From positions 528,736 to 592,735 of the forward strand of contig CAVTBK010000005.1 of the NCBI GenBank assembly GCA_963732935.1: a stretch of DNA of 64,000 bases, given 5' to 3'. The notes beneath the pieces are model-generated. The model worked only from the letters and a program-made list of their open reading frames with translations, did not search any database and was not told the origin of the DNA. Shown here one piece after another: positions 8,301 to 60,852 of this stretch. The DNA comes from an uncultured Acidobacteriota bacterium. GTDB taxonomy: Bacteria; Acidobacteriota; Vicinamibacteria; Fen-336. The stretch's first letter is position 1; each line of letters opens with the position of its first letter. Both the position numbers and the translations under genes were made by a program.

Positions 8301-11300
8301 CCGTTCCACCGGAGAGGACGTCGAGCGTCACCCCGGCAATGCCCGTCTCGCCCGTATCGAGGACGCCGTTCCCGTTGGTGTCGTTCCAGACGACTCCGGA
8401 AAGCGAGCGCGACACGAGGGCCTGGAAGCCGAAGTCCGCCCCCCAGTAGCTGACGCCGCCCGTGATCGTCGCGTTCAGCTGGAGCCCCGCCAAGACCGGG
8501 TCCGCGTCCGTGCCGGTGAACGCGTAGCCGGTCAGGGCCGGCACGCTCACGACGTAGCTGCCGTCGCCCAACCCGGCGAACACGTAGTGCCCGTTGGCAT
8601 CCGTCGTGGTCGTGTAGAGCGGGGTACCACCCTGGTAGAGCTGGACCACGACTCCGGGGATGCCACCCTCGCCGGAGTCCTGCACGCCGTTGCCGTTGGT
8701 GTCGAAGTAGACCGTGTCGCCGATGGCGCGCGTCGCCCGGAAGCCGTAGCTCGGCGACGAGCGCCGATCCCGGTCCGCGGTGAGGTTGCTCTCGGCGCGC
8801 CGGCGGGCCACGGCCCAGGTCGTCGTCCCCGCAAAGTCGGCGAGCACGCCACCCGTGTCACTGACGCGCGTCGTGTAGTTCGCGCCACCGCCGGTGACGC
8901 CGCTGAAGCTGAAGGTGCCGTCGGCCGCGCTGACGGCCGTGCCGATCACGTTGAGGCTCGCGTCCAGGAGGTCGACGCTCACCCCGGCGATCCCGCTCTC
9001 GCTGCCGCTGTCCCAGAGGCCGTTGCCGTTCAGGTCGAACCAGACGCGATCGCTGATCGCGTAGGTGGTGACCGTGCTTCCCGTGAAGCCGAAATCCGCG
9101 GTCACGTACGCGGTGCCAGCGACGACGTTCGGGAAGTAGTAGGTGCCCGGCGTGGTCAGGGCGTAGCCGCCCGGCGTCTGCACGGCGACGAAGTAGTCCT
9201 CGCCGCCGGTCAGACCGCTGGCGGTCAGCAGGTAGTGGCCGTCGACGCCGCTGGTCGTGGTCTGGATCGGGGTCGTCTCGCCCGCGTCCAGGACACCGTT
9301 CCCGTTCGCGTCCAGCAGAAGGCTCACGGTGGCGCCGGCGTAGGCGACTTCGCCCGCGTCGCGCAGGCCGTTCCCGTTCGCGTCCACCCACACCTGATCG
9401 CCGAAGAGAACCGTCCCGGTCGCGGGCCGATAGCCCAGGTCCGCGCTCGTGTAGCTGTCTCCGCGGGCGAGGTTGAAGGGCACCGAGCGGTTGCCGCCGT
9501 AGACGGCCGGGTTCGGATAGGACTGCGAGACACCGGCCGGCAGCCCTCCGGTGACCTCCACGTAGTAGCCGTCCCCGGGCGCCACGGTCGGGAACAGATA
9601 GCGGCCGCCGACGTCCGTGTACAGCGTGCCGAGCGGCGTTCCCCAGACGTCCTTCAGCGTGACCTCGACGTTCGCGATCCCCGACTCGCCGAAGTCCTGG
9701 ACGCCGTCCCCGTCGGCGTCGAGCCAGATGCGTCCCGCGACACTCGCGCTCACGACACTCGGGTTCGTGACGATGTTCGTGGCCGAGGCGCTCACCTGGA
9801 TGGGAAGCTGAACCGACGTTGTCGAGGCCGTGTTGGTGATGGAGCTGATGCCGGTCGGCAGCGGTGCGTCGACGGTGACGTTGAAGGTGGCCGTCAGGGT
9901 TCGACCCGCCGCCAGCGCGTAACCGTATGCGCTCGGCAGCAGATCGGGGGGATTGCTCCCGCTCACGGCCCTGTCGTATGTGATCGAGAGATTGTCGACG
10001 TAGAAGTACTCGCCGTTCTCCGCGTAGTCGCTAGCCGCCGGAATGCTGAACCTCACCTCCGTCAGGCCAGCGGGGGCAGCCAGGGGGATCGCGAACGTGG
10101 CGACCCCGGACACGTCGTCGGAGTAGGTGGCAAGTGTCATCCAGGCGCCACCGCCTCCTAGGCGGTATTGAACCGCGATGTCGTCCGTCGGCTCGAGATT
10201 GTTCGACGTCCGGTAGTCGAAAGCGAGCTCGGCCCAGGTCGCGCCACTCCCGGCCAGGTCGACGCCGCGTGAAATGGCGGGAGTGGCCGCGCTATAGCTG
10301 ATAGCCAGGTTGTCGACGTAGAAGTACTCGTTGTTCTCGTAGCTGGTCGTGTAGATCCTTATGGTCGTCGTCGCGGACAGCAGACCGGCCGGGATCGCGA
10401 AGTTGACGGTCCCGGTGTGATCGTTCTGGAAGTTCAGCACGGTCGTCCAGGGCCCCGCGGGGCTCGAGGCGACGTCGATCCACATATAGTCGCCGTTGTC
10501 GACGTTGCCGCTCGTCGTGTAGTTGCAGGTGATCGTTGCAGCGGTGGCCCCGGCTAGGTTGACCTGCCGGTAGATCGTCTGGGCGTTGCCCCCGAGGCGG
10601 AGCTGTCCGTTCAGGATCCGGATGTCGCCCGCGTTCGGTCCGTCGCCCTGGCTGTCGACCCAGTTGCCGTTCCAGTTCGTCGTGCCGTCGTTGTTGTTGT
10701 AGGCCGCCGTTCCGAAGTCGTCTTCCACGGTGCTGGGGGGCGTCAGGTAGCTGGTGAGCCTGAGCTCGCCACCGGTCACACGCACCACCCCGGTCGCGGG
10801 GGCGGCGTCGTCTTGCGTCTCTACCCAGCTGCCGGTCCAGTTCCGCGAGCCGTTGTTGTTGCCGTACGCTACGGTGTCGAAGCGATCGGCCACCGACGAG
10901 GCACTGAGAATCGTCGTCCCCGAGACCGAGCTCACTCCTGCGGGAAGCATGTCGTAGAGGGTGACCCCGGTCAGCGTGGTTCCGGAGCCCGCGGGGTTCG
11001 AGACCGTCGTCGTGTAGGTGAGTGTGTCGCCGGGATAGACGGGGGTCGCCTCCGGGACGCTCGAGGCCTTCGTGATCTGGACCGTGGTGCCGGCGGTGCC
11101 TTCCGAGACCACGTAGGTGAAGTCCTTGGTGGTGAAGGTCTGCGTCACGCCGCTCACCGTTCGCGTCCCGACTGCCTGCACCCGGTTTTGACTCAGCGTG
11201 CCTTCGGGCAGCGCCACTGTCGTCCGGGCCGTGAACGTGACCACGATCGACTGGTTGGGGGCCATGGCCCCGCCGGTCTGTGCGGTCGACCAGACGAGAG

Positions 11301-13212: not shown

Positions 13213-13419
13213 CGGGCCCCCGCGGCCAGAAAACGCCTGTCGGAGCATAGCCGGGGTGGCTGAGAATACGTCGTGTTTCCGGACACATCGCACCACGCCT
13301 GTGATCCAACGCAAGTGCGATGCCGCGTCGCAAGTCGCTTGTTTGCAGCAAATTCGCGACGTGATCCTGTCCGGGTTCCGGACGCGGGGTCCGATCCGGA
13401 CCCGCAACACGCCGAGTCG
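13213..13419 (-). promoter_or_regulatory. AT-richer 207-bp intergenic region upstream of the giant gene, with three TCCGGAC motifs and CGCAAGT direct repeats
   Basis: TCCGGAC occurs at about 13277-13283, 13374-13380 and 13395-13401, around the palindromic core TCCGGA. cgcaagtgcga and cgcaagtcgc lie at 13311-13338. GC is locally lower (aaattcgcgacg, ttgtttgcagcaaatt). Confidence 0.3.
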
Positions 13420-31531: not shown

Positions 31532-31561
31532 GGTGGGCCGGAGCCGGCGTAGAATCGGCTG

Positions 31562-32944
31562 GTGGCCCGCGCCACCGTGCTGGTCGTCGACGACGAGGAC
31601 CTGATCCGCTGGTCGCTGGGCGAGCGACTGGAGCGCGAGGGGTGCGCGGTGCTACCCGCAGGCAGCATCGCCGAGGCGCGCGCGCGCCATGAGGAAGGCG
31701 TGGACCTCGTCCTCCTGGACCGCCGGCTCCCCGACGGGGACGGTCTCGAGCTGCTCGCCGAGCTGCGAAGAGACGACCCCGACCTGCCGGTCGTGTTGAT
31801 GACCGCGTTCTCGACCGTCAAGGGAGCGGTGGCGGCCATGAAGGGCGGCGCCTTCCACTACGTCGCCAAGCCCTTCGACCTCGACGAGGTCGCTCTGGTG
31901 GTGGAGCAGGCCCTGGAGACGACGCGCCTGCGCCGGGAGCTGCGGCATCTGCGCGCGCGCCACGGCGGCTCCCCGATCGCGTCACTGATCGGCGAGTCGC
32001 CGGTGATGCTGGCGGTCAAGGAGAAGCTGCGCAAGATCGCGGCCAGCCCGGCCTCCACGGTGCTGCTGACCGGCGAGAGCGGCACCGGCAAGGACCTCGC
32101 CGCTCGGGCGATCCACCACACGAGCGAGCGGGCGCCCCGCCCCTTCATGGTCGTCACCTGCTCGGCGGTGCCCGAGTCCCTCCTGGAGAGCGAGTTCTTC
32201 GGGCACGAGCGGGGCGCGTTCACGGACGCGCGCCAGCAGCGCAAGGGCCTGCTCGAGCTGGCAGAGGGTGGCACCGTCTATCTCGACGAGGTCGGCGAGA
32301 TGACCTCGGCGCTGCAGGCGAAGCTGCTGCGCTTCCTCGAGGAGAAGACCTTCAAGCGCGTGGGTGGCGCGCGCGACGTGACGGTCGACGTCCGGGTGGT
32401 GGCAGCCACCAACCGGGAGCTGGCGACCGAGGTGCGCGAGGGCCGGTTCCGCGAGGACCTCTACTACCGCCTCAACGTGGTGCCGGTCCAGCTGCCGCCG
32501 CTGCGCGCCAGGCCGGGCGACGTGCGGCTGCTGGCCGACCACTTCCTGGCCACCTTCAACCGGGAGCTGCGCAAGCAGGTGCAGGGGCTGACGCCCGGGG
32601 CGATCGCTCTCCTGGAGGCCCATGGCTGGCCGGGAAACGTCCGCGAGCTGCGCAACGTCCTCGAGCGCGCGATCCTGCTGAGCGAGGGTTCGCTCCTCGG
32701 TGAGGCCGACGTCTCGCCTTTGGGCCGTGAGCGCGGCCGAGCCGCCGCCGACCTGCGCCTGCCCGCCGAGGGAGTCGACTTCGGCGAGCTCGAGCGCGAC
32801 TTCGTGCAGGAAGCCCTGCAGCGCACCGGCGGCAGCCCCACTCGCGCCGCGGCTCTCCTCGGCATGAGCCGGGACCAGATCCGTTACCGCATCGAGAAGT
32901 TCGGCCTGGCCGCGGGGGAACCCGAGCCGGAGTCGGGGTCCTGA
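31562..32944 (+). CDS. Sigma-54-dependent response regulator (NtrC family)
   Basis: REC domain ([12 protein letters not shown]...[14 protein letters not shown]), AAA+ sigma-54 activator domain ([21 protein letters not shown]), and a C-terminal HTH. Confidence 0.85.
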
Positions 32945-49383: not shown

Positions 49384-51804
49384 TCAGAAGGTGGTGCCGA
49401 CCGCGAACTTGAAGGCCCGCGCCGGCTGGTAGTAGTCGCGGTTGAGGTTCCAGGCGTAGATGAGCCGGAACGGCACGTTGAGCACGGGCATCAGGAACCG
49501 CAGCTCGACGCCGGTGGAGGTGGTCATGGTCTTCCACCAGAACCCCTGCCCTTCCGGGTAGGCCTGACCGGCGTCGAAGAAGACGAGCAGCCGGAGCGGG
49601 CTCAGGAAGTCGAAGTAGTACTCGGCGTTCGCCAGCAGGAACTTGTCGCCCCCCGTGGCCGTCTTGGTCTTGGGGTCGAACGGCGCCACGCTCTGGACGT
49701 TGACGCCGCGGATCTGCGTCTCGCCCCCCAGGAAGTACCGCTGGTAGTAGGGCACCTCGCTGGTGTCGCCGAAGGGCCTGATCCAGCCCGCCTGCCCGCG
49801 CAGGCCCAGCGCCATCTTCCGTCCCACCGGCAGGTAGACGACGCTCTCCAGGGTCGGGCGCAGGTAGTCGACGCTGCCGCCCAGGGGCCCGCCGGTCAGC
49901 TGGAAGCTCAGGGTGTGGCGCATCCCCGAGCGCGGGGTGTAGGGGTTGTCCACGGTGTCGCGGTTGAGAGTGAGGCTCACGCTGCTCTCGTAGCGCCGCC
50001 CCAGACCCCCGAAGTAGGACGGATCGCTGATCGGCAGGCTCGTCCCGGTGGCGAGGGCCGAGGCCTCCAGGGTCTGCAAGGTCTTCTCGTCCAGGTTGTA
50101 GATGTCGATGACCTGGTACGAGTAGCCGGTGAAGAGGCGTGTGAAGCCGCGAAGCGAGACGCCCGTGTTCACCGACACGCCCTGAGCCTGCTGCCCGTAT
50201 CCCACGAAGGTCCCATAGGAGAGGTAGGTGAGCCGGCGCAGGAAGACGTCGGCCCCGACCGTGATCGGGCGGTCCAGGAAGTAGGGCTCGCTCACCGAGA
50301 GCTGGAAGTTGCGACTGCGCCGGCCGGTCTGGGCGGCGAGGGTGACCGTCTCGCCCGCGCCCAGGAAGTTGGTGGTGGAGAAGGAGGCGTTCAGGAAGGT
50401 GCCCTCCAGGCCGCTCACGCCGCCGCCGAAGGTGAACTGGTTGCGGTTCTGCTCCTCGATCTTGAAGGTCACGTCCACCTTGTTGTCGGCCCCCGGAGTG
50501 GGCCTGATGTCGGGCGGCTTCTCCATGGGCTTGAAGTAGCCCAGCTGGTTGATCCGCTTGATCGACAGCTTGAGCGCCTCGGTGTTGAAGACCTCGCCTT
50601 CGTTCAGGTACACCTCGCGCCGGATCACCTTGTCCCGGGTCGAGTCGTTGCCGGTGAAGCTCAGCGTCCCGAGCAGGTACTGCTTGTCCTCCTCCATCCG
50701 CACCGTGACGTCGACCACCTTGCGCTCGGGATCCGGCTTCCTCTGGGTGCCCCCCGTCCACTGGAAGTAGCCCAGGCTCCCGTACAGGTCACGCAGCTTC
50801 TCGTAGGCCTTCTTGAACTTCGACTCGTTGTAGACCGCACCTTCCTTGAGCTTGAAGAAGCCGCGCACGTAGGACTCCTTCAGGACCTTGAGCCCCTCGA
50901 AGTCGAGCTTGCCCATCCGGTACTGCTCGCCTTCCGTGATCGGGATCTCGAGCCGCATCCACTTGACCGGCTTCTTCTTGATGAAGCCCGACTTGCCGTC
51001 GAAGTAGCTGATCTTCGGGTTGCCCACCCGCACCGTCACGTAGCCGTGGTTGAGATACAGGTCCTCGATCCTGCCCCGGTCCCCCCGCGGGTCCTCGTCG
51101 TCCCCCAGCCACTTGCTCTCCGCGTAGGTCGACTTGCCCCCCAGCCAGCTCAGGTTGAAGAAGCCCGCCTGCTTCATCTTGCTCATCCGCCAGCGCAGCC
51201 GCCGACCCGAGAAGACCTTGTTCCCGTCGAACACGATCTCCTTGATCTTCGTCTTCGGCCCGTCGTCGATCACGAACGAGAGCTGCTGGCCCGCGGCGCC
51301 CATCGCCTTCGCCTCGTGGTGTACCTTCGCGAAGGGCTGTCCCTTCAGGACCAGCATCTCCTTGATGATCGACTCCACCCGCCGGGCCTTGGCCGGGTCG
51401 TAGAAGGTGTCGACCCGGATCGTCGCGTCCCGCTTCTTCAGCTCGTCCTCGATGTTCGTGCTGGTCAGCTGCTTGCTGCCCCGGAAGTCCACGATCTGGA
51501 TGCGCTTCCTCTCCTGCACCTTGAAGCGCACGATCTTGCCCCCCTGCGGGCCATCCACCGCCTCGATCTGCAGGTCGTCCAGGAACCCCGTGTCCCACAA
51601 ACGCCGGAAGTCCTCGCGCAGCTTGGCCACGTCGTAGCGGTCACCGGGACGCGTCTGGATGTAGAAGAGCAGCGTGTCCGTCTGCAGCAGCTGGTTGTTG
51701 ACGATCTCGACCGCCTCCACCACCGGTCCCCCGCCCGAAGGCGCCGCCGACGGGGCGGTGAAGAGCAGGGCGAGCAGGACAACGACAGTCGCGCGTGGGC
51801 ACAT
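49384..51804 (-). CDS. bamA: Outer membrane protein assembly factor BamA
   Basis: Signal peptide, POTRA repeats, and a C-terminal beta-barrel ending ...AFKFAVGTTF with an aromatic terminal residue. Confidence 0.9.
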   Translation of the reverse strand: MCPRATVVVLLALLFTAPSAAPSGGGPVVEAVEIVNNQLLQTDTLLFYIQTRPGDRYDVAKLREDFRRLWDTGFLDDLQIEAVDGPQGGKIVRFKVQERKRIQIVDFRGSKQLTSTNIEDELKKRDATIRVDTFYDPAKARRVESIIKEMLVLKGQPFAKVHHEAKAMGAAGQQLSFVIDDGPKTKIKEIVFDGNKVFSGRRLRWRMSKMKQAGFFNLSWLGGKSTYAESKWLGDDEDPRGDRGRIEDLYLNHGYVTVRVGNPKISYFDGKSGFIKKKPVKWMRLEIPITEGEQYRMGKLDFEGLKVLKESYVRGFFKLKEGAVYNESKFKKAYEKLRDLYGSLGYFQWTGGTQRKPDPERKVVDVTVRMEEDKQYLLGTLSFTGNDSTRDKVIRREVYLNEGEVFNTEALKLSIKRINQLGYFKPMEKPPDIRPTPGADNKVDVTFKIEEQNRNQFTFGGGVSGLEGTFLNASFSTTNFLGAGETVTLAAQTGRRSRNFQLSVSEPYFLDRPITVGADVFLRRLTYLSYGTFVGYGQQAQGVSVNTGVSLRGFTRLFTGYSYQVIDIYNLDEKTLQTLEASALATGTSLPISDPSYFGGLGRRYESSVSLTLNRDTVDNPYTPRSGMRHTLSFQLTGGPLGGSVDYLRPTLESVVYLPVGRKMALGLRGQAGWIRPFGDTSEVPYYQRYFLGGETQIRGVNVQSVAPFDPKTKTATGGDKFLLANAEYYFDFLSPLRLLVFFDAGQAYPEGQGFWWKTMTTSTGVELRFLMPVLNVPFRLIYAWNLNRDYYQPARAFKFAVGTTF

Positions 51805-51917
51805 CCCTCGCAATCTGCGCCCCGACGGCGCCCGAGTCTTCATGCCGGCGAAAGAACGCGGTCAGACATGTAAGCGGCGCCCGCGGCGCCCGCGCCCCTT
51901 GGGCCGCCGGCGCGCGG

Positions 51918-51932
51918 ATTTACATCGCTTAC
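51918..51932 (+). promoter_or_regulatory. 15-bp AT-rich box ATTTACATCGCTTAC (reverse complement GTAAGCGATGTAAAT), copy 1
   Basis: Exact reverse-complement match to 57544-57558. It sits 58 nt upstream of the GTG at 51990. A half-site TGTAAGCG is also present at 51868-51875. Confidence 0.45.
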
Positions 51933-51989
51933 CGACGGCTTTCACCGCCATGAAGACTGGCCGGCACGGCGGGCACAGATTCTCGGGGA

Positions 51990-53129
51990 GTGGGCTACGG
52001 CTCGACAAGACCGTTCCTCCTCCTCCTGTGGGTCTCCCTGGGTGCCGGCGCCGGGATCATCCAGTCGCTGGTCGGCGAGGTGGTCTCGGCGCCGGCAGAC
52101 GGAGGGCGGCGTCTGCTGGTGAAGAAGGACGGCGGCGGCACGGTTGCCGTCGTGATCGCGGATGGAGCGCGCATCCTGCGCCTGCCACCGGGAAAGACCG
52201 CGCTCGCAGACGCGACCCCGATCGCCCTCGACGCGATCACGGAGGGCGACCGGGTGCTCTGCCGGGCGAACGCCGGAACCGAGCCCGACACCTGGAGGGC
52301 CTCGCTGGTCGTCGTCATGAAGCGTGCCGACCTCGAAGAGCGCCGCGCGCGGGAGCGGGACGACTGGAGGCGGCGCGGCGCGGCAGGCGTCGTGACGGCA
52401 CTCGACCCCGTCGCCCTCGAGATCCGGATGCGCCTGACCGGCACGCGCGGCGAGCTGGTGGCCGTGTGCAACCCGCGGACTGTCTTCCGCCGCTACGGCT
52501 CGGGCTCGTCCCGCTTCGCCGACACCCACCTCAGCGCCTTCCACGAGCTGGCGGTCGGCGACCAGGTCCGGGTGCTGGGCGAGCGCGACGCCGCCGGCGC
52601 GCGTCTTGTCGCGGAAGAGGTCGTCTCGGGGGCCTTCCGGGTGGTGCGCGGCGTGCTCGCGGAGGCGGACGCGGCGCACGGGATCGTCCGCGTGCGCGAG
52701 AGCGGGCAGGGCCGAGCCGGCCGCGCTGGCCAGGCGATGGTCGAGCTGAAGCTCGGCCCCGCCACCCTGCTCCGCCGCCTCCCCCCCATGCTGGTGATGC
52801 GCCTGATGCGTGCTTCCGCTCGCGGCGCGACCGCGGGCGGCACGGAAGCGGACGCGCGCCCGGAGGAGGAGGAGTCGCCGCGCCTCGACCCGGACGAGAT
52901 CCTGGAAAGGCTGCCCGCCATCGGCGCGGAAGACCTGCGACCGGGCGACGAGCTGGCGGCGGTGGGGCCGAAAGGGCCGGACGGCGCCCCTCTCGCGGCC
53001 ACCAAGCTGGTGGTGTGGACGCTCCCGTCCTGGCAGGACGCACGCTCGCGCTCTCGCCGCGGCGGCAGCGAAGAGCCGACGGACCCGTTCCTGGAGGTTC
53101 TCGGCGTCGGAGGAGAGACACCTTGGTGA
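51990..53129 (+). CDS. Secreted protein with repeated beta-rich modules (DUF5666-like)
   Basis: Hydrophobic N-terminus (PFLLLLWVSLGAGAGIIQ). Repeated G.VVxV...GD.V.V segments. The stop overlaps the next gene's start. Confidence 0.55.
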   Translation: MGYGSTRPFLLLLWVSLGAGAGIIQSLVGEVVSAPADGGRRLLVKKDGGGTVAVVIADGARILRLPPGKTALADATPIALDAITEGDRVLCRANAGTEPDTWRASLVVVMKRADLEERRARERDDWRRRGAAGVVTALDPVALEIRMRLTGTRGELVAVCNPRTVFRRYGSGSSRFADTHLSAFHELAVGDQVRVLGERDAAGARLVAEEVVSGAFRVVRGVLAEADAAHGIVRVRESGQGRAGRAGQAMVELKLGPATLLRRLPPMLVMRLMRASARGATAGGTEADARPEEEESPRLDPDEILERLPAIGAEDLRPGDELAAVGPKGPDGAPLAATKLVVWTLPSWQDARSRSRRGGSEEPTDPFLEVLGVGGETPW

Positions 53130-56100
53130 CGAGACGCCCCCCGATCCTCCCGGTCGCGTCTGCCGTCGTGGTCGCGCTGCTCGGCGCAGCGATCCCTTCC
53201 CTTGCGGCACCGCCTATCTCTCCTCCTGAGACGGGCTCGCTCGAGGGCACGGTCGTCGACCCCTCGGGCGCAAGCGTCCCGGGGGCGCACGTCGAGGTGC
53301 GGGGCGCCGGCACCCGCCGCTCGGGCAAGACCGACAAGGGCGGCGCGTGGAAGCTCGAGGGACTGCGGCCCGGCCGCTACACGGTCCGCGTTACACGCGA
53401 AGGCTTCGCTGCCGACGCCCGCGAGGCGGCGGTGGTCGCGGGCGGCGAGACCTCGCTCGAGATCTCGCTCGCCCTGGCCCCGGTCGAGGAGAAGGTGAAC
53501 GTCGCCGAGCCTCACCCGACCATCGGGCTCTCCCAGGAACAGAGCGCAGGCGCGATCGTGATCGAGGGCGATGAGCTGGACGCGCTGCCGGACGATCCCG
53601 ACGAGCTGCTGGACGCACTCCAGGCCCTGGCCGGCCCGGCGGCGGGGCCGAGCGGGGGCCAGGTGTTCGTGGACGGCTTCAGCGGCGGCCGGATGCCGCC
53701 CAAGTCCGCGATCCGCCAGATCCGGATCAACGCCAGCCCCTTCTCCGCCGAGTACGACCGTCCCGGCTTCGGCCGGATCGAGATCTTCACCAAGCCGGGC
53801 AGCGAGTCCTTCCACGGCCAGGCCCAGGCGCGCCTCCGCGACAGCGCCCTGGACGCCCGCGACTCGTACGCGTCCAACAAGCCCGACTACCGTCGCCTGA
53901 CCTGGGGCGGCGGCATCGGCGGGCCGATCGTCAAGGGGCGGGCTTCCTTCTTTCTCGACTTCGACCGTCGCAGCGTCGACGACACCGAGCTGGTGAACGC
54001 CACCGTGCTCGGCGAGGACCTTCAGCCCACCTCGTACAACGATTCCCTGGTGGTCCCCCGCCACCACACCACGATCAGCCCCAGGGTCGACGCCCAGCTC
54101 GGCGCTCACACCCTCACCCTGCGCTACGCCTACACCTCGGACGACCAGCAAGGAGCGGGCGTGGGCGGCTTCTCCCTGCCGTCCCGCAGCTACGACGTCT
54201 CGAGCGCACAGCAACTGCTCCAGGCCGGCGACACGGTCTCCTTCGGCAGGCTGCTAAACGAGCTGCGCGTCCAATGGACGCGCCGGCGCCGGAGCCAGGA
54301 CCCGCTGAGCGGCCTCCCCGCCCTGGTGGTACAGGAGGCGTTCACTTCGGGAGGCGCCGACGCGGGGCTCTCCTCCTCGCGCGACCAGGGGCTCGAGATC
54401 CACGACATCCTGTCGGGCACCTGGGGCGCCCACTCGATCCGCACCGGTCTGCGCGTCCGCGGCAGCGATCACTCCGAGACCTCCCGCCAGGGCTGGAACG
54501 GCAGCGTCACCTTCGCTGGCGGCCTGGCGCCGGTCCTGGACGCCGACGGCCAGGTCGTGCTCGGACCCGACGGCAGCCCGCTGCTCGCGCCCATCTCCAG
54601 CCTGGAGCGCTACCGGCGAACGCTCCTCTTCGCCTCGCAGGGCCTCGACCCCGCGGCCATCCGCGCCCGCGGCGGCGGCGCCAGCCAGCTCGCCATCGCG
54701 GGCGGCGACGCCGAAGCCGGCGTTCGCCAGTGGGACTTCGCCGCCTTCTTCCAGGACGACTGGAAGGCACGCCGGGACCTGACCCTGGGCCTGGGCCTGC
54801 GCCTGGAGAGCCAGACCAACGTCGCGCGGACCGTCGACCTCGCCCCGCGGCTTTCGATCGCCTGGTCGCCCGGCTATCCCGGGCGCGGCCCCGCGAAGAC
54901 GGTCCTGCGCGGCGGCGTCGGGCTCTTCTACGACCGCATCGACGACAGCCTCGTGCTCGACACGCGCCGCAACGCCATCAGCGCCCCGCGCCGCTACCTG
55001 GTGAGCGACCCTTTGCTCCTCGACGAGGTCCGCTACGCTGCGGACGGCAGTGTCGCGAGCCTGCCCTCCTTCGACGCGCTGGGCGCAGCGGAACAGCCGG
55101 CCCTGGTACGCCTCTTCGCGGACGGCCTCAGGACGCCACTCGCTCTCCACACCTCGATCGGCGTCGACCGCACCTTGCCGGCGGGCTTCACGCTCACCGC
55201 GGCCTGGCTCGACTCGCGCACCTGGCGCGCCCTGCGCTCGCGTGTGGTCCCGGCACCTTCGGCCGGAGAGAACGGCGCCGCGGCGGTCGCCTACCAGTAC
55301 GAGTCCACCGGGCGGATGCGCCAGGACCAGCTGATCCTGGGGCTGAACCGCCGTTTCAGCGAGCGGCTGAGCCTGTCCATGCGCTACTTCCTCGGCTGGG
55401 CCCGCAGCGACACCGACGGGGCCGGCAGCTTCCCCGCCGATTCCAGCGATCCCGCCGCCGACTGGGGGCGTTCCTCGCACGACGTGCGCCACCGCCTGAT
55501 CCTGATGGGCAGCGTGACCCTGCCCTGGGAAGTGCGCCTGAGTCCGTTCCTGATCGCCTCCTCGGGCGCCCCCTTCAACATCACGGTCGGCCGGGACCTG
55601 AACGGCGACACGGCGTTCACGGACCGTCCCGCCTACGCGAGCGACCCCTCGAACCCGGACGCAGTCACGACGCCCTGGGGCGTCTTCGACACGTCTCCCT
55701 CCCCGGGCGAAGAGACCATCCCGCGCAACCTGGGAGAGGCGCCGGGCCTTCTCGTCTTCAACCTCCGCGTGAGCAAGACCATCCCTCTCGTGCGCCGCCG
55801 GGCGCAGGCCACGGACGACCCGGAGGCCGGCGGACACGACGGGCCCGATGGTGGTCCCGGGCCGGGTGGCCCGCCTCCGGGAGGACACGGCGGACCCGGG
55901 GGGCCGGGCGGCTTCGGCGGCCCGCCGGGTATGGGGCCGGGCGGCTTCCGGGGACGAGGCGGCCGCTTTGGCGGACGCCGGCAGACGGGGCCCTCGCTGA
56001 GCGTGTCGCTCTACGCGCAGAACGTGCTCAACAAGGCCAACGCCGGCGTGCCCGTCGGCAACCTCAGCTCCCCGACTTTCGGGCGCTCCCTCACCAGCGC

Positions 56101-56191
56101 CGGCGCCTTCGGCCGCGGCCCGGGTGGCGGCGGTCCGGGCGGGGCCACGGGCAACCGCTCGATCGAGCTGCGGGTCCGCGCGTCCTTCTGA
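53126..56191 (+). CDS. TonB-dependent receptor-like outer membrane protein with N-terminal carboxypeptidase-regulatory-like domain
   Basis: Signal peptide; LEGTVVDPSGASVPGAHVEVRG...GGAWKLEGLRPGRYTVRV (CarboxypepD_reg); a long beta-barrel region; a Gly-rich low-complexity insert near the C-terminus; terminal ...IELRVRASF. Confidence 0.8.
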   Translation: MTRRPPILPVASAVVVALLGAAIPSLAAPPISPPETGSLEGTVVDPSGASVPGAHVEVRGAGTRRSGKTDKGGAWKLEGLRPGRYTVRVTREGFAADAREAAVVAGGETSLEISLALAPVEEKVNVAEPHPTIGLSQEQSAGAIVIEGDELDALPDDPDELLDALQALAGPAAGPSGGQVFVDGFSGGRMPPKSAIRQIRINASPFSAEYDRPGFGRIEIFTKPGSESFHGQAQARLRDSALDARDSYASNKPDYRRLTWGGGIGGPIVKGRASFFLDFDRRSVDDTELVNATVLGEDLQPTSYNDSLVVPRHHTTISPRVDAQLGAHTLTLRYAYTSDDQQGAGVGGFSLPSRSYDVSSAQQLLQAGDTVSFGRLLNELRVQWTRRRRSQDPLSGLPALVVQEAFTSGGADAGLSSSRDQGLEIHDILSGTWGAHSIRTGLRVRGSDHSETSRQGWNGSVTFAGGLAPVLDADGQVVLGPDGSPLLAPISSLERYRRTLLFASQGLDPAAIRARGGGASQLAIAGGDAEAGVRQWDFAAFFQDDWKARRDLTLGLGLRLESQTNVARTVDLAPRLSIAWSPGYPGRGPAKTVLRGGVGLFYDRIDDSLVLDTRRNAISAPRRYLVSDPLLLDEVRYAADGSVASLPSFDALGAAEQPALVRLFADGLRTPLALHTSIGVDRTLPAGFTLTAAWLDSRTWRALRSRVVPAPSAGENGAAAVAYQYESTGRMRQDQLILGLNRRFSERLSLSMRYFLGWARSDTDGAGSFPADSSDPAADWGRSSHDVRHRLILMGSVTLPWEVRLSPFLIASSGAPFNITVGRDLNGDTAFTDRPAYASDPSNPDAVTTPWGVFDTSPSPGEETIPRNLGEAPGLLVFNLRVSKTIPLVRRRAQATDDPEAGGHDGPDGGPGPGGPPPGGHGGPGGPGGFGGPPGMGPGGFRGRGGRFGGRRQTGPSLSVSLYAQNVLNKANAGVPVGNLSSPTFGRSLTSAGAFGRGPGGGGPGGATGNRSIELRVRASF

Positions 56192-56236
56192 GCGCGCGGC
56201 CGGACCGCTCCTCGAGGGATCGCCTGACCGCTCCGC

Positions 56237-56542
56237 CTATCTCAGGCAGGGAGAGACGCTCGCGCTCCCGCGGATGCCGGGGTCAGGAGAGGCGTGCAGC
56301 GGCCTGCCCAGGATCCCGGCATCCAGGGACGGCCTCGCCGGTACGATCCTGATCGCACACACCGTCCGGCCTCGCCCGACCGGCAGACGGAGGCCGAACG
56401 ATCCCACGGCTCGGGCGGCAGGGCCGGGAGACGACAAGCTGAAGGGGGCGAGCCGATTCACGTACCCCCCGCCCAGCCTGAAGGGCGTCACCCGCGGGGC
56501 ATCCGCTGCGGAACCGAGGATCAGGATCAGAGCGATCAGCAT
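56237..56542 (-). CDS. Candidate small ORF with signal-peptide-like N-terminus in a 465-bp intergenic gap (weak)
   Basis: MLIALILILGSAADAP..., with a GGGAGG SD-like sequence about 10 nt upstream. The rest is Arg/Pro/Gly-rich, as expected for a chance high-GC ORF. Confidence 0.2.
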   Translation of the reverse strand: MLIALILILGSAADAPRVTPFRLGGGYVNRLAPFSLSSPGPAARAVGSFGLRLPVGRGRTVCAIRIVPARPSLDAGILGRPLHASPDPGIRGSASVSPCLR

Positions 56543-56654
56543 CTCTCAGCCTCCCGTCTCTCTCCTCCCGATCCTACCCTCTCGACACCCCCGCGACCAG
56601 GAGGCGGCGCCGCCTGAAGCGCCGCCTCCTGACCTCCGCTGGGTCTGGGAACGC

Positions 56655-57449
56655 CTACGGCGCGGGCGGCGCGTCCGGCCCCGTGGCCGGGGGCGGAGCC
56701 CCCTGGGGAGGAGGCGGCCCCTGCGGGCGAGGAGTGTCCGCAGAAGGCTCCTCTGTCTCCGCCTTGAAGGGATCGAACACCCGCTTGATCTTGACCGTGT
56801 CGCCGAAGGGACGATCCAGCTCCACGAGCACGGTCAGCTGCCGTGGCTCGGTGGTCGCTGACCACTCCTCTTTCATGCCGCCACGCTGCGACTTCGTCTC
56901 GACCAGGAGCCTGGCGCCGTCCCAGTGGGTCTTGACGGTCCGGCCCTCCGCGTTCTCATAGCCCTTGCCGTCGGCGTGCAGCGTGCGCAGCGTGGCCTCG
57001 GGGCCGACGATCGTGATCTCCGGCGTGAGGTTCGTGATCGTGATCTTGTCGGCGGTGAAGAGCATCCCCCCACCGGCGAAGCCGCCCGGGCGTCCTTCGC
57101 GCGCCATGCCGCCGCCGGGGCCGCCACCCCAGCCGCCGCGGCGAACGCCGCGGCGAACGCCGCCGCCCCAGCGACCACCGCCTCCGCCTTCGGGCGGCTC
57201 ACCTTCCCCGCCGCCCCACCGGCCGCCGCCCGGGCCGCCGCGGTTCGGCCGCCCCTCGCGCATCTTCGCGCGCGGGTCGTCGCTCAGCTGCTTGTTCAAC
57301 GACCACTCCCCCACGAATGCCTGCCGGGCAGCCGTGACGGCCGCCTCGTCCGCAGCCTTGTCCTTCGCGCTGGCAGGAGTCGACAGGCCGACCCCCGCCA
57401 GGACGATCGCTCCCGCCAGGGCGAAGAGCCGACCCACCTGCTTGTGCAT
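56655..57449 (-). CDS. Secreted glycine-rich protein
   Basis: MHKQVGRLFALAGAIVLAGVGLSTPASA (signal peptide), then GGPGGGRWGGGEG... repeats, and a C-terminal Pro-rich tail. Confidence 0.6.
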   Translation of the reverse strand: MHKQVGRLFALAGAIVLAGVGLSTPASAKDKAADEAAVTAARQAFVGEWSLNKQLSDDPRAKMREGRPNRGGPGGGRWGGGEGEPPEGGGGGRWGGGVRRGVRRGGWGGGPGGGMAREGRPGGFAGGGMLFTADKITITNLTPEITIVGPEATLRTLHADGKGYENAEGRTVKTHWDGARLLVETKSQRGGMKEEWSATTEPRQLTVLVELDRPFGDTVKIKRVFDPFKAETEEPSADTPRPQGPPPPQGAPPPATGPDAPPAP

Positions 57450-57543
57450 GGTTCCTCCGCGGCGCGACCCTCGGTCGCACACTTGCCAGTATCCACGATC
57501 GTCTCGCTCGGACCGGGAGTCATCATGCCCACGAAAGTCCTCT

Positions 57544-57558
57544 GTAAGCGATGTAAAT
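57544..57558 (+). promoter_or_regulatory. 15-bp box GTAAGCGATGTAAAT, copy 2, in a direct-repeat half-site arrangement (GTAAG-N4-GTAAA)
   Basis: It lies in the 159-bp divergent region between the Gly-rich protein gene (start 57449, minus) and the histidine kinase gene (start 57609, plus). Confidence 0.45.
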
Positions 57559-57608
57559 GACGCCCCGCCGCCGCCAGGCCCGCCTTCTCGCGCTGCTACA
57601 CTCGCCGC

Positions 57609-59354
57609 ATGTGGCGTTGGCCCCGCCAGTACGGGCTCTGGATCACACTCGGCTCGCTCGCGTTCCTGCTCCTTCTACTCGGCGTCCTCCAGTACCGGTG
57701 GATCGGCGAGATCGGACGCGCCGAGGCGGAAAGGCAGAAGGCCCAGATCGCCCGCTCCGCGAACCGTTTCGCCGCCGGCCTGGACCGCGCGCTCGGGCAG
57801 GTGATGCTGGCGCTGCACGGCGAGCCCCGGTCGGAGCCGGCCGGTCCCGGCATGCTCGACGAACGCCTCGCGCTCCTCTCGCGGAGCGACGAGGCGCGGC
57901 TCGTCTCCCGCGTCCTGCGCCTCCGGCCGCGCGCGGGCGCCGTCTCCCTGGAGGACTGCACCGTTGCCGGGCCCCACTGCCAGCCCGGTACCTGGACGCC
58001 CGCATTGGAGACGCTTCGCCGGCGTCTCCTGGCACGTGAGGAGGCCGGCGGCTCTCCCTTCGAGAGCGGGATCCGTCCCGGTGAGATGCTGGACGACCCG
58101 CCCGCCCTGCTGCTCCCCGATCTCGAGCGGGAGGACACGGCGCCGAGGCAGGCCGGTCCTCAACGCCTCCGGCTCGACAGCCTGCTGGTGATCGAGCTGG
58201 ACACCGCCTACCTGCGCGGCACGCTCCTGCCCCAGCTCGCCGAGGCCTGTTTCGGTCCCTTGCGCGAGAGCGAGTTCGCGGTGAGTGTCGTGCGCCGCGC
58301 CGACCGTCACCCCCTGTACTCGAGTGCTCCCACGGACCGCGGCGAGGGGAGCCGCGGCGACCTGGAGCTGGAGATCCCCGGCTTCCTGCGTCCGAACCCC
58401 GAACGGGAAGGCCGCCGGCGCTTCCCGGGCTTCCTGTTCGGGGCCTGGAGGGAACGGGAGCGCCGCTTCGACTCCGCACCGGCGGAGGCGCCCTGGCTGC
58501 TGGTGGTGCGTCACCGGGGAGGCTCGCTGGACCACGCCGTGACGGCGATGCGGCGGCGCAACCTGGCCCTGAGCCTCGGTGTCCTGGCCCTCCTGGGAGC
58601 CGCCGCGATCGTCCTGGTGATCGGAGCCCAGCGGGCACGGAGCCTGGCGCGCCAGCAGATCGAGCTGGTCGCCGGCGTGAGCCACGAGCTCAACACGCCG
58701 CTCGCCGCCATCCGCTCCGCCGGCGAGAACCTGGCGGAGGGCATCGTCACCGACCCCGCCCAGGTGCGCCGCTACGGTGCCTCGATCGAGCAGCAGGGCC
58801 GCCGCCTGACCGGGCTGGTCGCACAGGTCCTCGACTTCGCCGGGATCGAGTCGATGAGCCGCGCCTACGCGAGCGAGCCGGTTTCGCTCCCGCGCCTGGT
58901 CGACGATGCCCTCGCCGAGCTGCACCTGGTGCTCGAGCAGGCGGGCCTGGTCGTCCTGAAGGTGATCCCGGCCGACCTGCCGGAGCTGCGCGGAGACGCC
59001 CCCGCGCTCCGCCGGGTCCTCGCCAACCTGCTCACGAACGCGGCCAAGTTCGCCGCCGCCGGAGGTCGAGCCACGATTCGCGCCCATGCGGTCCCGGGCC
59101 GGAAGCGCGTGGTCCTGCGGGTCGAAGACGCGGGCCCCGGCATCCCGGCCGCCGAGCGCGCGCGGGTGTTCGAGCCCTTCTACCGGGGTGGCGCAGCCGG
59201 GCGGAACGAGGTCCCGGGCAGCGGGCTGGGGCTCGCCCTGGTCCGCCGCGTGGTGACGGCGCACGGCGGCAGCGTGCGGATCGAGGAGGCCGCGGGGGGA
59301 GGCACGGCCGTCGTGGTGGAGCTGCCCGCGGCCGGCCAAGGCGAGCCGTCGTGA
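57609..59354 (+). CDS. Sensor histidine kinase
   Basis: N-terminal TM (ITLGSLAFLLLLLGVL); HisKA H-box (SHELNTPLAAIRS); HATPase_c (G-boxes: EDAGPGIP, GSGLGLALV). Confidence 0.85.
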   Translation: MWRWPRQYGLWITLGSLAFLLLLLGVLQYRWIGEIGRAEAERQKAQIARSANRFAAGLDRALGQVMLALHGEPRSEPAGPGMLDERLALLSRSDEARLVSRVLRLRPRAGAVSLEDCTVAGPHCQPGTWTPALETLRRRLLAREEAGGSPFESGIRPGEMLDDPPALLLPDLEREDTAPRQAGPQRLRLDSLLVIELDTAYLRGTLLPQLAEACFGPLRESEFAVSVVRRADRHPLYSSAPTDRGEGSRGDLELEIPGFLRPNPEREGRRRFPGFLFGAWRERERRFDSAPAEAPWLLVVRHRGGSLDHAVTAMRRRNLALSLGVLALLGAAAIVLVIGAQRARSLARQQIELVAGVSHELNTPLAAIRSAGENLAEGIVTDPAQVRRYGASIEQQGRRLTGLVAQVLDFAGIESMSRAYASEPVSLPRLVDDALAELHLVLEQAGLVVLKVIPADLPELRGDAPALRRVLANLLTNAAKFAAAGGRATIRAHAVPGRKRVVLRVEDAGPGIPAAERARVFEPFYRGGAAGRNEVPGSGLGLALVRRVVTAHGGSVRIEEAAGGGTAVVVELPAAGQGEPS

Positions 59355-60037
59355 AGACGCGCGTGCTGATCGTCGAGGACGAGCCGCTGCTGGTGATGAC
59401 CCTCAGCGACCGCCTGCGGGCGGAGGGCTACGAGATCGAGTCGGCCACGAACGGCGAGCTGGGCCTGACCCGCGCGCGCACGGGCTCTTTCGACCTCGTC
59501 CTGCTCGACGTGGCCCTGCCGCTGCGCAACGGCTTCGACGTTCTGCGTGACCTGCGCCAGCAGCGCGTGGACACGCCCGTGGTCATGCTCACCGCGCGGG
59601 GCCAGGTCGTCGACCGAGTGCTGGGGCTCAAGCTGGGTGCCGACGACTACCTGCCGAAGCCCTTCGACGCCATGGAGCTGCTCGCCCGCATCGAGGCCGT
59701 CCTGCGCCGGCGCAAGGGCACCGCGACCCCCTCCGGCGGCAGCGTCGTGTTCGGCGAGGTACGGGTGGACTTCCGGCGCGCCGAGGTCCAGCGCGAGGGG
59801 AAGCCGGTCGAGCTCTCCAGCCTGGAGTTCAAGCTGCTGCGCTACTTCGTCGAGCACCGCGGCGAGCTGCTTTCGCGGCACGAGCTGCTCCAGCGCGTGT
59901 GGGGGTACCCGGCGGTCCTCCAGACGCGCACCGTCGACGTCCACGTGGCGTCTCTCCGCCAGAAGCTGGAGCCCCACCCGGCCAAGCCCGAGCACATCCT
60001 GACCGTGCACCGGATGGGCTACCGCTTCGTCGGGTGA
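59351..60037 (+). CDS. OmpR-family response regulator
   Basis: REC (VLIVEDEPLL...DLVLLDVALP) with a winged-helix trans_reg_C domain (...TVHRMGYRFVG). Its start overlaps the kinase stop. Confidence 0.9.
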   Translation: MKTRVLIVEDEPLLVMTLSDRLRAEGYEIESATNGELGLTRARTGSFDLVLLDVALPLRNGFDVLRDLRQQRVDTPVVMLTARGQVVDRVLGLKLGADDYLPKPFDAMELLARIEAVLRRRKGTATPSGGSVVFGEVRVDFRRAEVQREGKPVELSSLEFKLLRYFVEHRGELLSRHELLQRVWGYPAVLQTRTVDVHVASLRQKLEPHPAKPEHILTVHRMGYRFVG

Positions 60038-60132
60038 GCCGGGCAGCGGTCAGGGCGGTCGCGGTCGGCTGGCTGTAAGTCTATTAGGAAGAACCAGATC
60101 GGTCCGCCAGCGGTTTCGGTTTCGATCTCCCC

Positions 60133-60852
60133 TTGCGGTGGGGGTGCTCGATGGCCCATGATCCCACCCCTCGGCACGCAGCGGAGGGTCGAAGCCCCAT
60201 GCTCACCACCGACGTCGGTCGGGACGCGGCACACTGCGACGACTTCTTCGAGGCACGGCTCCGCTTCGGCATCCGCAGACCGGCGGGTTGGCGCTTCCTG
60301 TCCAGCTCCGGGTCCCCCGCCGCGCGAGCCCTGGGACGCAGAGCCGACGCGACCCGGCCCCATCCGCCGTTCGTGGCCATGGTGCGGGACGTCGCCAGTG
60401 ACCGTCATCCCCGTCCGACCATCCAGGTCAGCTGCCGCCGGGTCGGCCCGCAGGCCGAGGCGAAGCTGCGCCAGCTGCTGCGCGCGCACCTCGACTCCTT
60501 GCGCCGCCAGCTCGACGGCTTCGAGCTGCTGACGTCCTCGCTCGACAACATCGTCGGTGGCCGGCGGACCGCACACCTGCAGTACCGCTACGTCCTGCAC
60601 GTGCCCTGCGGGGCGGAGGCCTGCCCGATGCCCGTCCTGGCCCACAACTACCTGGTGCCGACCGCGGGGCTGGTCTTCACGATCGCGATGTCGAGCAGCC
60701 AGGACGGGCGCTACTTCGACGAGGGGGACTTCGCGGCGGCGCTCGCGTCGGTCCGCATCGGCTCCTCTGGCCGCCGCAGATCCGGCCCGACCTTCGACCG
60801 GCCTCGGGTGATCGGCTGGACCGGGACTCCGGCCCGCGTCTCGTCCTCCTGA
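60133..60852 (+). CDS. Hypothetical protein (weak)
   Basis: Long ORF with plausible non-repetitive segments (QLLRAHLDSLRRQLDGFELLTSSLDNIVGG...YVLHVPCGAEACPMPVLAHNYLVPTAGLVFTIAMSS) and no recognisable domain. Confidence 0.3.
   Translation: MRWGCSMAHDPTPRHAAEGRSPMLTTDVGRDAAHCDDFFEARLRFGIRRPAGWRFLSSSGSPAARALGRRADATRPHPPFVAMVRDVASDRHPRPTIQVSCRRVGPQAEAKLRQLLRAHLDSLRRQLDGFELLTSSLDNIVGGRRTAHLQYRYVLHVPCGAEACPMPVLAHNYLVPTAGLVFTIAMSSSQDGRYFDEGDFAAALASVRIGSSGRRRSGPTFDRPRVIGWTGTPARVSSS

Follow-up and report, generated by a model that had tools for sequence, protein, structure and literature searches.

The stretch of DNA analysed here, called the window, comprises 64,000 nucleotides (nt) of contig CAVTBK010000005.1 from an uncultured Acidobacteriota bacterium, and the element under study is a short direct-repeat box that recurs upstream of genes near an OmpR-type two-component system. 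Genes were called from a listing of open reading frames (ORFs), an analysis of G+C content at third codon positions (GC3) and Pfam matches (Table 1). The bamA gene is transcribed divergently from the gene of a DUF5666-like secreted or periplasmic protein, the stop codon of which is overlapped by the GTG start of an outer membrane receptor gene, indicating that the latter two form an operon (51990-56191). Beyond the operon, a gene for a Gly-rich secreted protein diverges from the histidine kinase gene, and the response regulator gene follows. The DUF5666-like protein matches its Pfam family weakly, with 22.8 bits where 27 is the cut-off; its homologs carry DUF5666 with faint CusF-like hits and belong to Acidobacteriota, the named ones to Vicinamibacteria and, more distantly, to Pyrinomonadaceae and Bryobacteraceae.

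Table 1. Genes and promoter elements of the window in the region of the two-component system.
Feature	Position	Strand	Remarks
bamA	49384-51843	-	Omp85 and four POTRA domains (Pfam)
bamA promoter, -10-like CAGATT	51812-51817	-	ATG 51804, 7 nt later
Module copy 3, degenerate	51812-51875	-	box GCTTACATGTCTGAC 51861-51875; CTTTC 51850-51854; TGAAGAC 51836-51842; -10-like CAGATT 51812-51817; faces bamA
Box copy 1, ATTTACATCGCTTAC	51918-51932	+	faces the DUF5666-like gene; kept upstream of orthologs in L082, L084, L086, L088, L089
DUF5666-receptor operon, composite promoter	51918-51981	+	box; CTTTC 51939-51943; TGAAGAC 51951-51957; -35-like AAGACT 51953-51958; 17-nt spacer; -10-like CAGATT 51976-51981; GTG 51990, 8 nt later
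DUF5666-like secreted/periplasmic protein, CusF-like	51990-53129	+	weak Pfam match
Outer membrane receptor, TonB-dependent type	53126-56191	+	CarboxypepD_reg/OMP_b-brl_4
Gly-rich secreted protein	56655-57449	-	264 amino acids (aa); signal peptide; no Pfam family
Gly-rich gene, composite promoter	57495-57558	-	box; CTTTC 57533-57537; TGATGAC 57519-57525; -10-like GATCGT 57495-57500; leader of ~38 nt with GGAGGAA ribosome-binding site
Box copy 2, ATTTACATCGCTTAC	57544-57558	-	faces the Gly-rich gene; 50 nt ahead of the kinase gene; identical 15-mer at the equivalent place in L084
Kinase-regulator operon promoter, extended -10 TGCTACACT	57594-57602	+	ATG 6 nt on
Histidine kinase	57609-59354	+	50 nt from box copy 2
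OmpR-type response regulator	59351-60037	+	presumed binder of the box

An earlier note on this DNA had described an identical 15-mer in promoter position at two places, one of them 50 nt upstream of the histidine kinase gene; both copies, that distance and the descriptions of the surrounding genes were borne out. Read as GTAAGCGATGTAAAT, the 15-mer lies at 57544-57558 on the forward strand and at 51918-51932 on the reverse strand, and no further match was found in the window with up to 3 mismatches allowed; a scan of the 64 kb for GTAAG-N4-GTAAA with at most one mismatch likewise returned these two sites and none besides. Two hits were obtained in none of 100 dinucleotide-preserving shuffles, the chance expectation being 0.06. 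Read toward the genes that they face, the boxes are direct repeats of TTTAC and CTTAC at 9-bp spacing, or TTTACA-N3-yTTACA in extended form, and the two sites are alike over approximately 41 nt (33/41 identical), sharing ATTTACATCGCTTAC-N6-CTTTC-N5-CATGA-N-GACT. A search with the extended pattern revealed a third, degenerate copy at 51835-51875 that points at bamA and reads GCTTACATGTCTGAC-CGCGTT-CTTTC-GCCGG-CATGAAGACT on the minus strand. None of the three copies is farther than 6 kb from the two-component system. The earlier note had also listed two extra TGTAAG half-sites, of which the one at 51868-51873 is present but belongs to the third copy, and the one at 60074-60079 lies outside any module and is probably due to chance, since about 8 lone TGTAAG sequences are expected from the composition of the window (an estimate) and 3 were seen.

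The box singled out by the earlier note is therefore real, but the functional unit would be a composite promoter of approximately 65 bp rather than 15 bp: TTTACA-N3-yTTACA, N5-CTTkC, N7-TGArGAC, N17-18, a -10-like hexamer nAnnnT, and then the start codon. Of the three -10 assignments in the window, that of the Gly-rich gene (GATCGT) is the weakest; a related locus (L084) has GACGTT at the same place. The longest bamA ORF begins at an ATG (51843) inside the module. The true start is probably the ATG at 51804, implying a leaderless mRNA, because in another related locus (L082) the ATG of the module is not in the reading frame of bamA while CAGATTGCGAGGGATG is kept; the absence of an 819-aa version of BamA from the protein collection points weakly the same way. 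The ATG inside CATGAAGACT was also considered as a conserved start or leader peptide and rejected, being out of frame with the DUF5666-like and Gly-rich genes and, at bamA, in frame in the window but, in L082, not in the frame of the conserved bamA start.

Each full box is located between two divergent genes (bamA/DUF5666 and Gly-rich gene/kinase), so that orientation alone has no power to name the gene served, and the assignments were decided by comparative data. Loci fetched by homology to the DUF5666-like protein (40-59% identity; L082/83, L084, L086/87, L088, L089, L090) are unbiased with respect to DNA sequence, and in all of them the module is found upstream of the DUF5666-receptor operon. 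In L084, the DUF5666 gene, the receptor gene, a homolog of the Gly-rich gene and a gene of the LTXXQ family are followed by the kinase and regulator genes; the DUF5666 protein is 47% identical to that of the window and the sensor domain of the kinase 56%, and the kinase-proximal intergenic region contains the identical 15-mer followed by CTTTC and CATGAAGACT elements. Variants among the orthologous loci reveal which positions of the module are constrained: the box may read TTTACAG-N3-TTTACAG, its spacing is 10 bp in L086, and the -35-like element may read GGAGAC, GATGAC or GCGGAC. On the bamA side, boxes are kept in six related loci (L082, L090, L097, L111, L208, L210), with TGAAGAC often replaced by CTTAAGG. 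The bamA promoters of one sub-clade (L097, L111, L208, L210) keep the double TTAC box and CTTGC and have a conserved CTTAAGG in place of TGAAGAC.

The wider distribution of the module was surveyed by scanning metagenome contigs for TTTACA-N4-TTAC-N6-YTTKC-N8-GRAGAC. At least 120 stretches matched, mostly from soil; three were AT-rich chance hits, and 106 non-redundant copies were kept among the matches listed, to which the counts of copies in the scan given from here on also refer. Of the 106 copies, 77 (73%) share their contig (median length 3.1 kb) with a homolog of the window kinase or regulator as detected by tblastn, the kinases being 28-60% identical including the sensor domain and the regulators 50-81%. 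The positions relative to these genes are fixed. Thirty-six copies point away from the kinase gene, with a gap of 41-58 nt between kinase start and box in 34 of them (50 nt in the window); in 30 copies the module begins 2-31 nt past the stop codon of the regulator gene; and in 7 more it lies upstream of a small gene that precedes the kinase gene. No post-regulator module was found in the window, where 60038-60140 holds only a lone CTTACA. The ORF that follows the regulator gene directly (60088-60852, forward strand) has coding-like GC3 and no Pfam or NCBIfam match, and is not kept at that place in related loci.

The linkage was examined from the side of the kinase as well. A scan of a genome collection with back-translated patterns of the full kinase matched the generic catalytic domain (best full-length match 32% identical), and the loci thus obtained, 1.26 Mb around 80 unrelated OmpR-type systems, served as a negative control: they contain no strict or module-like match. 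With the sensor domain of the kinase alone as query, the named hits were Vicinamibacteria, and four long contigs at 30-46% identity were taken. In all four the box occurs where predicted, directed away from the kinase gene and/or right after the regulator stop codon, and these loci of approximately 21 kb hold one other relaxed-box match, 2.2 kb downstream of the regulator gene in L211. Extra boxes were also seen in relatives, either as a second box in tandem, about 45-65 nt ahead of a full module, or as a lone box without CTTkC and TGAAGAC (L122, minus strand, 3763-3850; L133, minus, ~1850; L154, plus, 330-470; L213, minus, 9949; L171, minus, 6713; L174, plus, 2583), which suggests sites of differing function, for example cooperative or repressive. 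In a distant relative (L214, plus strand, 31-1404), five tandem 89-aa genes at a spacing of exactly 276 nt lie upstream of a chemotaxis-like and two-component gene cluster.

These distributions bear on two readings in which the conserved stretch would not be an operator. The earlier note had named membership in a repetitive element or REP family as a possible objection, and some features could be taken to favour a repeat, a mobile element or a neutral local duplication devoid of regulatory role: the three copies are clustered within 6 kb, and around 51896 copies 1 and 3 are arranged as an imperfect inverted pair. However, there are just these three copies in 64 kb and none in the control loci, no consensus structure was found, and every copy is intergenic and gene-directed, with a -10 element and a start codon at fixed distances. 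Moreover, the module is kept across genomes in which the proteins are 30-60% identical while the flanking intergenic sequence is not. This explanation is very improbable and is effectively refuted. A role of the conserved stretch as transcribed RNA, for example a leader structure, a riboswitch or a small RNA, is equally improbable. The location upstream of coding regions and the partial retention of the downstream CAGATTGCAG... among close relatives are compatible with such a role, but there is no Rfam match at E<=1, RNAalifold found no consensus structure for 53 diverse copies on either strand, and what is conserved is primary sequence with spacers of variable length. In addition, the -10-like hexamer follows the module and the start codon is often 5-10 nt farther on, so that most of the module would lie upstream of the transcript. 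A general housekeeping promoter was rejected on the ground that the module is found at only three of the approximately 45 genes of the window.

The organization of the module resembles that of a promoter. Positions outside the search pattern are nearly invariant in 87 non-redundant copies (A5 in 87/87, A14 in 76/87, T32 in 86/87), and a hexamer nAnnnT, with A at its second and T at its sixth position, begins 17-18 nt past AAGACn in 98 of 100 copies, compared to about 9% estimated by chance; its frequent forms are TAGCCT, TATGCT, TAGGAT, TAGATT and CAGATT. In 26 of 100 copies, the hexamer is followed at 5-10 nt by a start codon that opens an ORF of 90 aa or more, taken to mark a leaderless mRNA, and the others have leaders of the GGAGG type. 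Relative to the inferred transcription start, 6-8 nt past the -10 element, the box would span approximately -69 to -55, CTTkC -49 to -45, TGArGAC -37 to -31, where it overlaps a poor -35 element, and nAnnnT approximately -12 to -7. The distances between the starts of successive conserved blocks, of which there are four, are 9, 11 and 10 bp, which places the blocks on one face of the helix. The half-sites of the box (5-7 bp) are repeated in direct rather than inverted orientation at a distance of roughly one helical turn, the 9-bp spacing being at the short end of the range. No canonical sigma-70 promoter was detected in either box region, which fits dependence on an activator. A reading of TTTACA as the -35 element was rejected, as a 17-nt spacer would fall on non-conserved sequence (TCACCG or TCGTGG) while the conserved nAnnnT is about 50 nt farther downstream; sigma-54 and extracytoplasmic function (ECF) readings of CTTTC...TGAAGAC were also rejected on inspection of the sequences, their spacing and sequences being unfit.

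The ORFs downstream of 100 copies were classified. By far the most numerous are those of the LTXXQ/Metal_resist family, which comprises CpxP, Spy and ZraP (51 copies), followed by the Gly-rich secreted family to which the 264-aa protein of the window belongs (20). Less frequent are a di-haem oxidoreductase (DHOR; 5), a small outer-membrane-like protein preceding the DUF5666-receptor pair (5), DUF5666 or the receptor directly (3, one being an ORF mis-called into the receptor), the kinase (2, a small gene in front having been skipped by ORF picking), an EF-hand protein (1) and a PKD protein (1); no family was given for 12. Nearly all of the downstream proteins have a signal peptide, and they are overwhelmingly secreted or envelope proteins. 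The regulon proposed in the earlier note, a secreted protein with an outer membrane receptor and the Gly-rich protein, agrees with these assignments and had overlooked bamA as a further target.

Autoregulation of the two-component system, the remaining member of that regulon, is plausible from the fixed distance between box and kinase gene, the kinase start lying about 55 nt from the centre of the second box. It is tempered by the opposite orientation of the box and by the promoter that the kinase gene owns: the extended -10 TGCTAnACT is kept in the window and in most of the 36 loci in which the kinase gene diverges from a module, 5-9 nt before the kinase start, indicating that the kinase mRNA is leaderless. 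Leaderless transcripts seem common in this lineage, as in this operon and in the quarter of module-driven genes (26/100) mentioned above. A reading in which the regulator binds but represses its targets, or in which the site at 57544-57558 mainly autoregulates the kinase-regulator operon instead of serving the Gly-rich gene, would account for the constancy of the kinase-to-box distance and for the nearly equal distances of the box from both divergent starts, and CpxR has been reported to be active in either orientation (PMC5063474). It is nonetheless improbable. The module is asymmetric and always directed toward the gene other than the kinase; the same module also drives genes in the 30 cases above, in which it follows the regulator stop codon and no kinase promoter is present; the target promoters have no good -35 element, as is seen in activator-dependent promoters; and an extended -10 such as that of the kinase gene is usually activator-independent.

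The regulator predicted to bind the box has a receiver domain (Response_reg, E = 5.9e-29) and a winged-helix domain (Trans_reg_C, E = 1.2e-26) by Pfam, and its best solved relatives are RegX3, PhoP, PrrA and KdpE. It falls short of all NCBIfam equivalog cut-offs (CpxR 158.9 bits against 341, OmpR 178 against 331, PhoB 194.8 against 296.2, BaeR 162.8 against 380), and several other named regulators outscore CpxR. The kinase scores 98.6 bits against the CpxA cut-off of 486. Its transmembrane helices (residues 9-30 and 319-341) enclose a periplasmic domain of about 285 aa that matches no Pfam family, and no HAMP domain is present, the second helix running straight into HisKA. Homologs of the kinase form more than 100 clusters of 535-605 aa, the named ones being Vicinamibacteria. 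A second protein with a receiver domain is encoded about 26 kb away (31553-32944, forward strand, 464 aa); its receiver is 39% identical to that of the regulator over 119 aa, and no box is nearby. Other ORFs of the window are one of 101 aa between the receptor and Gly-rich genes (56237-56542, minus strand), which matches neither a Pfam nor an NCBIfam family, is without a homolog in the loci fetched, and was also gene-called in a metagenome contig (L001), and one of about 2687 aa with coding-like GC3 (5359-13419, minus strand).

Several points weigh against assigning the box to this regulator. It is put forward as the binder by its adjacency only. In several genomes, copies upstream of the DUF5666-receptor pair and of bamA are located away from the two-component system. 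The half-site spacing is 9 bp compared to the 10-11 bp usual in the OmpR/PhoB family. CTTkC and TGArGAC are better conserved than a weak -35 element requires, and a second factor could be involved. The LTXXQ gene, which typifies the regulon elsewhere and is its commonest target, is not among the targets here, and tblastn found no LTXXQ homolog in the 64-kb window. Finally, the scan pattern fixes most positions of the module, so that their conservation in the matches is partly circular, and the protein-anchored loci do vary (GGAGAC, GATGAC, GCGGAC, CTTAAGG, TGAATAC).

In an alternative reading, another transcription factor or an alternative sigma factor would recognize the module, and its proximity to the two-component system would reflect co-regulated neighbours. 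The near invariance of CTTkC and TGArGAC, extending to the unforced T32 and exceeding the needs of a weak -35 element, is in keeping with such a factor, as are the lack of a detectable canonical sigma-70 promoter and the location of some bamA, DUF5666 and DHOR copies on contigs without the two-component system. This alternative is unlikely. The module keeps its distances from the kinase start and the regulator stop codon across kinases of 30-56% identity, a constancy that is difficult to account for unless module and two-component system are directly linked; TTTAC-type direct repeats are typical of binding by OmpR-family winged-helix proteins; the -10 element is of the housekeeping nAnnnT type and not of the ECF type; and no sigma or anti-sigma factor gene recurs in the examined loci. 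The 15-mer is quite probably the operator of the adjacent OmpR/PhoB-family regulator, placed inside a rigid activator-dependent composite promoter. The corresponding proposal of the earlier note, that a direct-repeat box of the OmpR/CpxR type would serve the adjacent regulator and a small envelope regulon, is strongly supported by comparative genomics through the conservation at orthologs, the linkage of the scanned copies, the kinase-chosen loci and the empty control loci.

Comparison with described systems places the candidate regulon closest to Cpx. CpxP is an LTXXQ protein, and promoters of the OmpR/PhoB class have tandem direct-repeat sites upstream of the -35 element or replacing it. The CpxR site has been given as GTAAA(N)4-8GTAAA (PMC5063474), and the promoter region between the divergent cpxR and cpxP genes contains a validated site some 55 nt ahead of cpxR (PMC3158067). 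The present system likewise has an OmpR-family regulator, direct repeats of pentamers of the same sequence type, a box in a divergent region, about 50-55 nt ahead of the two-component operon, and envelope targets. In many relatives (for example L098, L171, L209, L212) the divergent region is shared with an LTXXQ gene, as with cpxP, whereas the window has the Gly-rich gene in that place. GTAAG-N4-GTAAA fits the loose N4-8 form of the consensus with one mismatch but does not fit GTAAA(N)5GTAAA. Other features differ from Cpx: the kinase gene precedes the regulator gene; the kinase has no HAMP domain and a large periplasmic domain of no known family; the half-sites are 9 bp apart instead of 10, in a box that is part of a rigid four-element promoter; the targets include bamA and the operon of the TonB-type receptor, and the window is without an LTXXQ gene; and neither the regulator nor the kinase comes near its NCBIfam cut-off, so they are not orthologous. 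Accordingly, Cpx appears to be the closest functional analogue, the system being Cpx-like but not Cpx-orthologous.

Resemblance to OmpR/PhoB promoters in general lies in TTTAC- or GTTAC-like direct repeats on one helix face, with several sites extending down to a poor -35 element and a housekeeping -10; the regulator not being an equivalog, the 9-11-10 bp spacing and the unusual invariance of CTTkC and TGArGAC set the present promoters apart. In ZraPSR and BaeSR/Spy, as would be the case in relatives of the present system, a two-component system is next to the gene of a periplasmic LTXXQ/Metal_resist protein that it controls. The LTXXQ protein of L084 faintly matches ZraP (E ~1e-3), and the faint CusF-like hits of the DUF5666 homologs may be a hint of metals. 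ZraR is a sigma-54 regulator of the NtrC type, unlike the OmpR-type regulator of the window, and the latter is also well below the BaeR cut-off.

A mechanism may be proposed in which the large periplasmic domain of the kinase senses a cue and the phosphorylated regulator binds the repeats TTTACA and yTTACA, 9 bp apart, as a high-affinity operator, perhaps with two regulator dimers on four sites in keeping with the helical periodicity of 9, 11 and 10 bp. The regulator would recruit RNA polymerase to three promoters of the window, those of bamA, of the DUF5666/CusF-like protein with the receptor, and of the Gly-rich protein. The resulting mRNAs would either begin a few bases ahead of the initiation codon, and so be leaderless, or carry a short leader that contains a ribosome-binding site; in the window, transcription is predicted to start near 51988-51990 and 57607-57609 on the plus strand and near 51804-51806 and approximately 57488 on the minus strand. 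For relatives, the chief target would be the periplasmic LTXXQ protein resembling CpxP, Spy and ZraP, by which the whole would resemble a Cpx-like envelope-homeostasis regulon of Vicinamibacteria-type Acidobacteriota. Escherichia coli splits these jobs between sigma-E, which takes care of bamA, and Cpx, which takes care of cpxP. A broader possibility, advanced tentatively, is that this is an undescribed envelope-homeostasis response of Vicinamibacteria-type Acidobacteriota in which one two-component system directly controls bamA, the gene of an essential factor of outer membrane assembly, and the genes of the CpxP/Spy-like protein, the Gly-rich protein, and the CusF-like protein with the TonB-type receptor, through a rigid four-element promoter on which two regulator dimers, or the regulator and a second factor, replace the -35 element.

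No literature was found on acidobacterial transcriptional regulons, on LTXXQ proteins or envelope-stress two-component systems of Acidobacteriota, or on the present system. The finding leaves the general understanding of two-component systems unchanged. It offers a sequence-defined regulon and promoter architecture with evidence for widespread leaderless transcripts, and a motif that can be used to annotate targets in metagenome-assembled genomes and to design reporters. For the under-explored Acidobacteriota, which are among the most abundant bacteria of soil, it presents a candidate envelope-stress or metal-homeostasis pathway that would include bamA.

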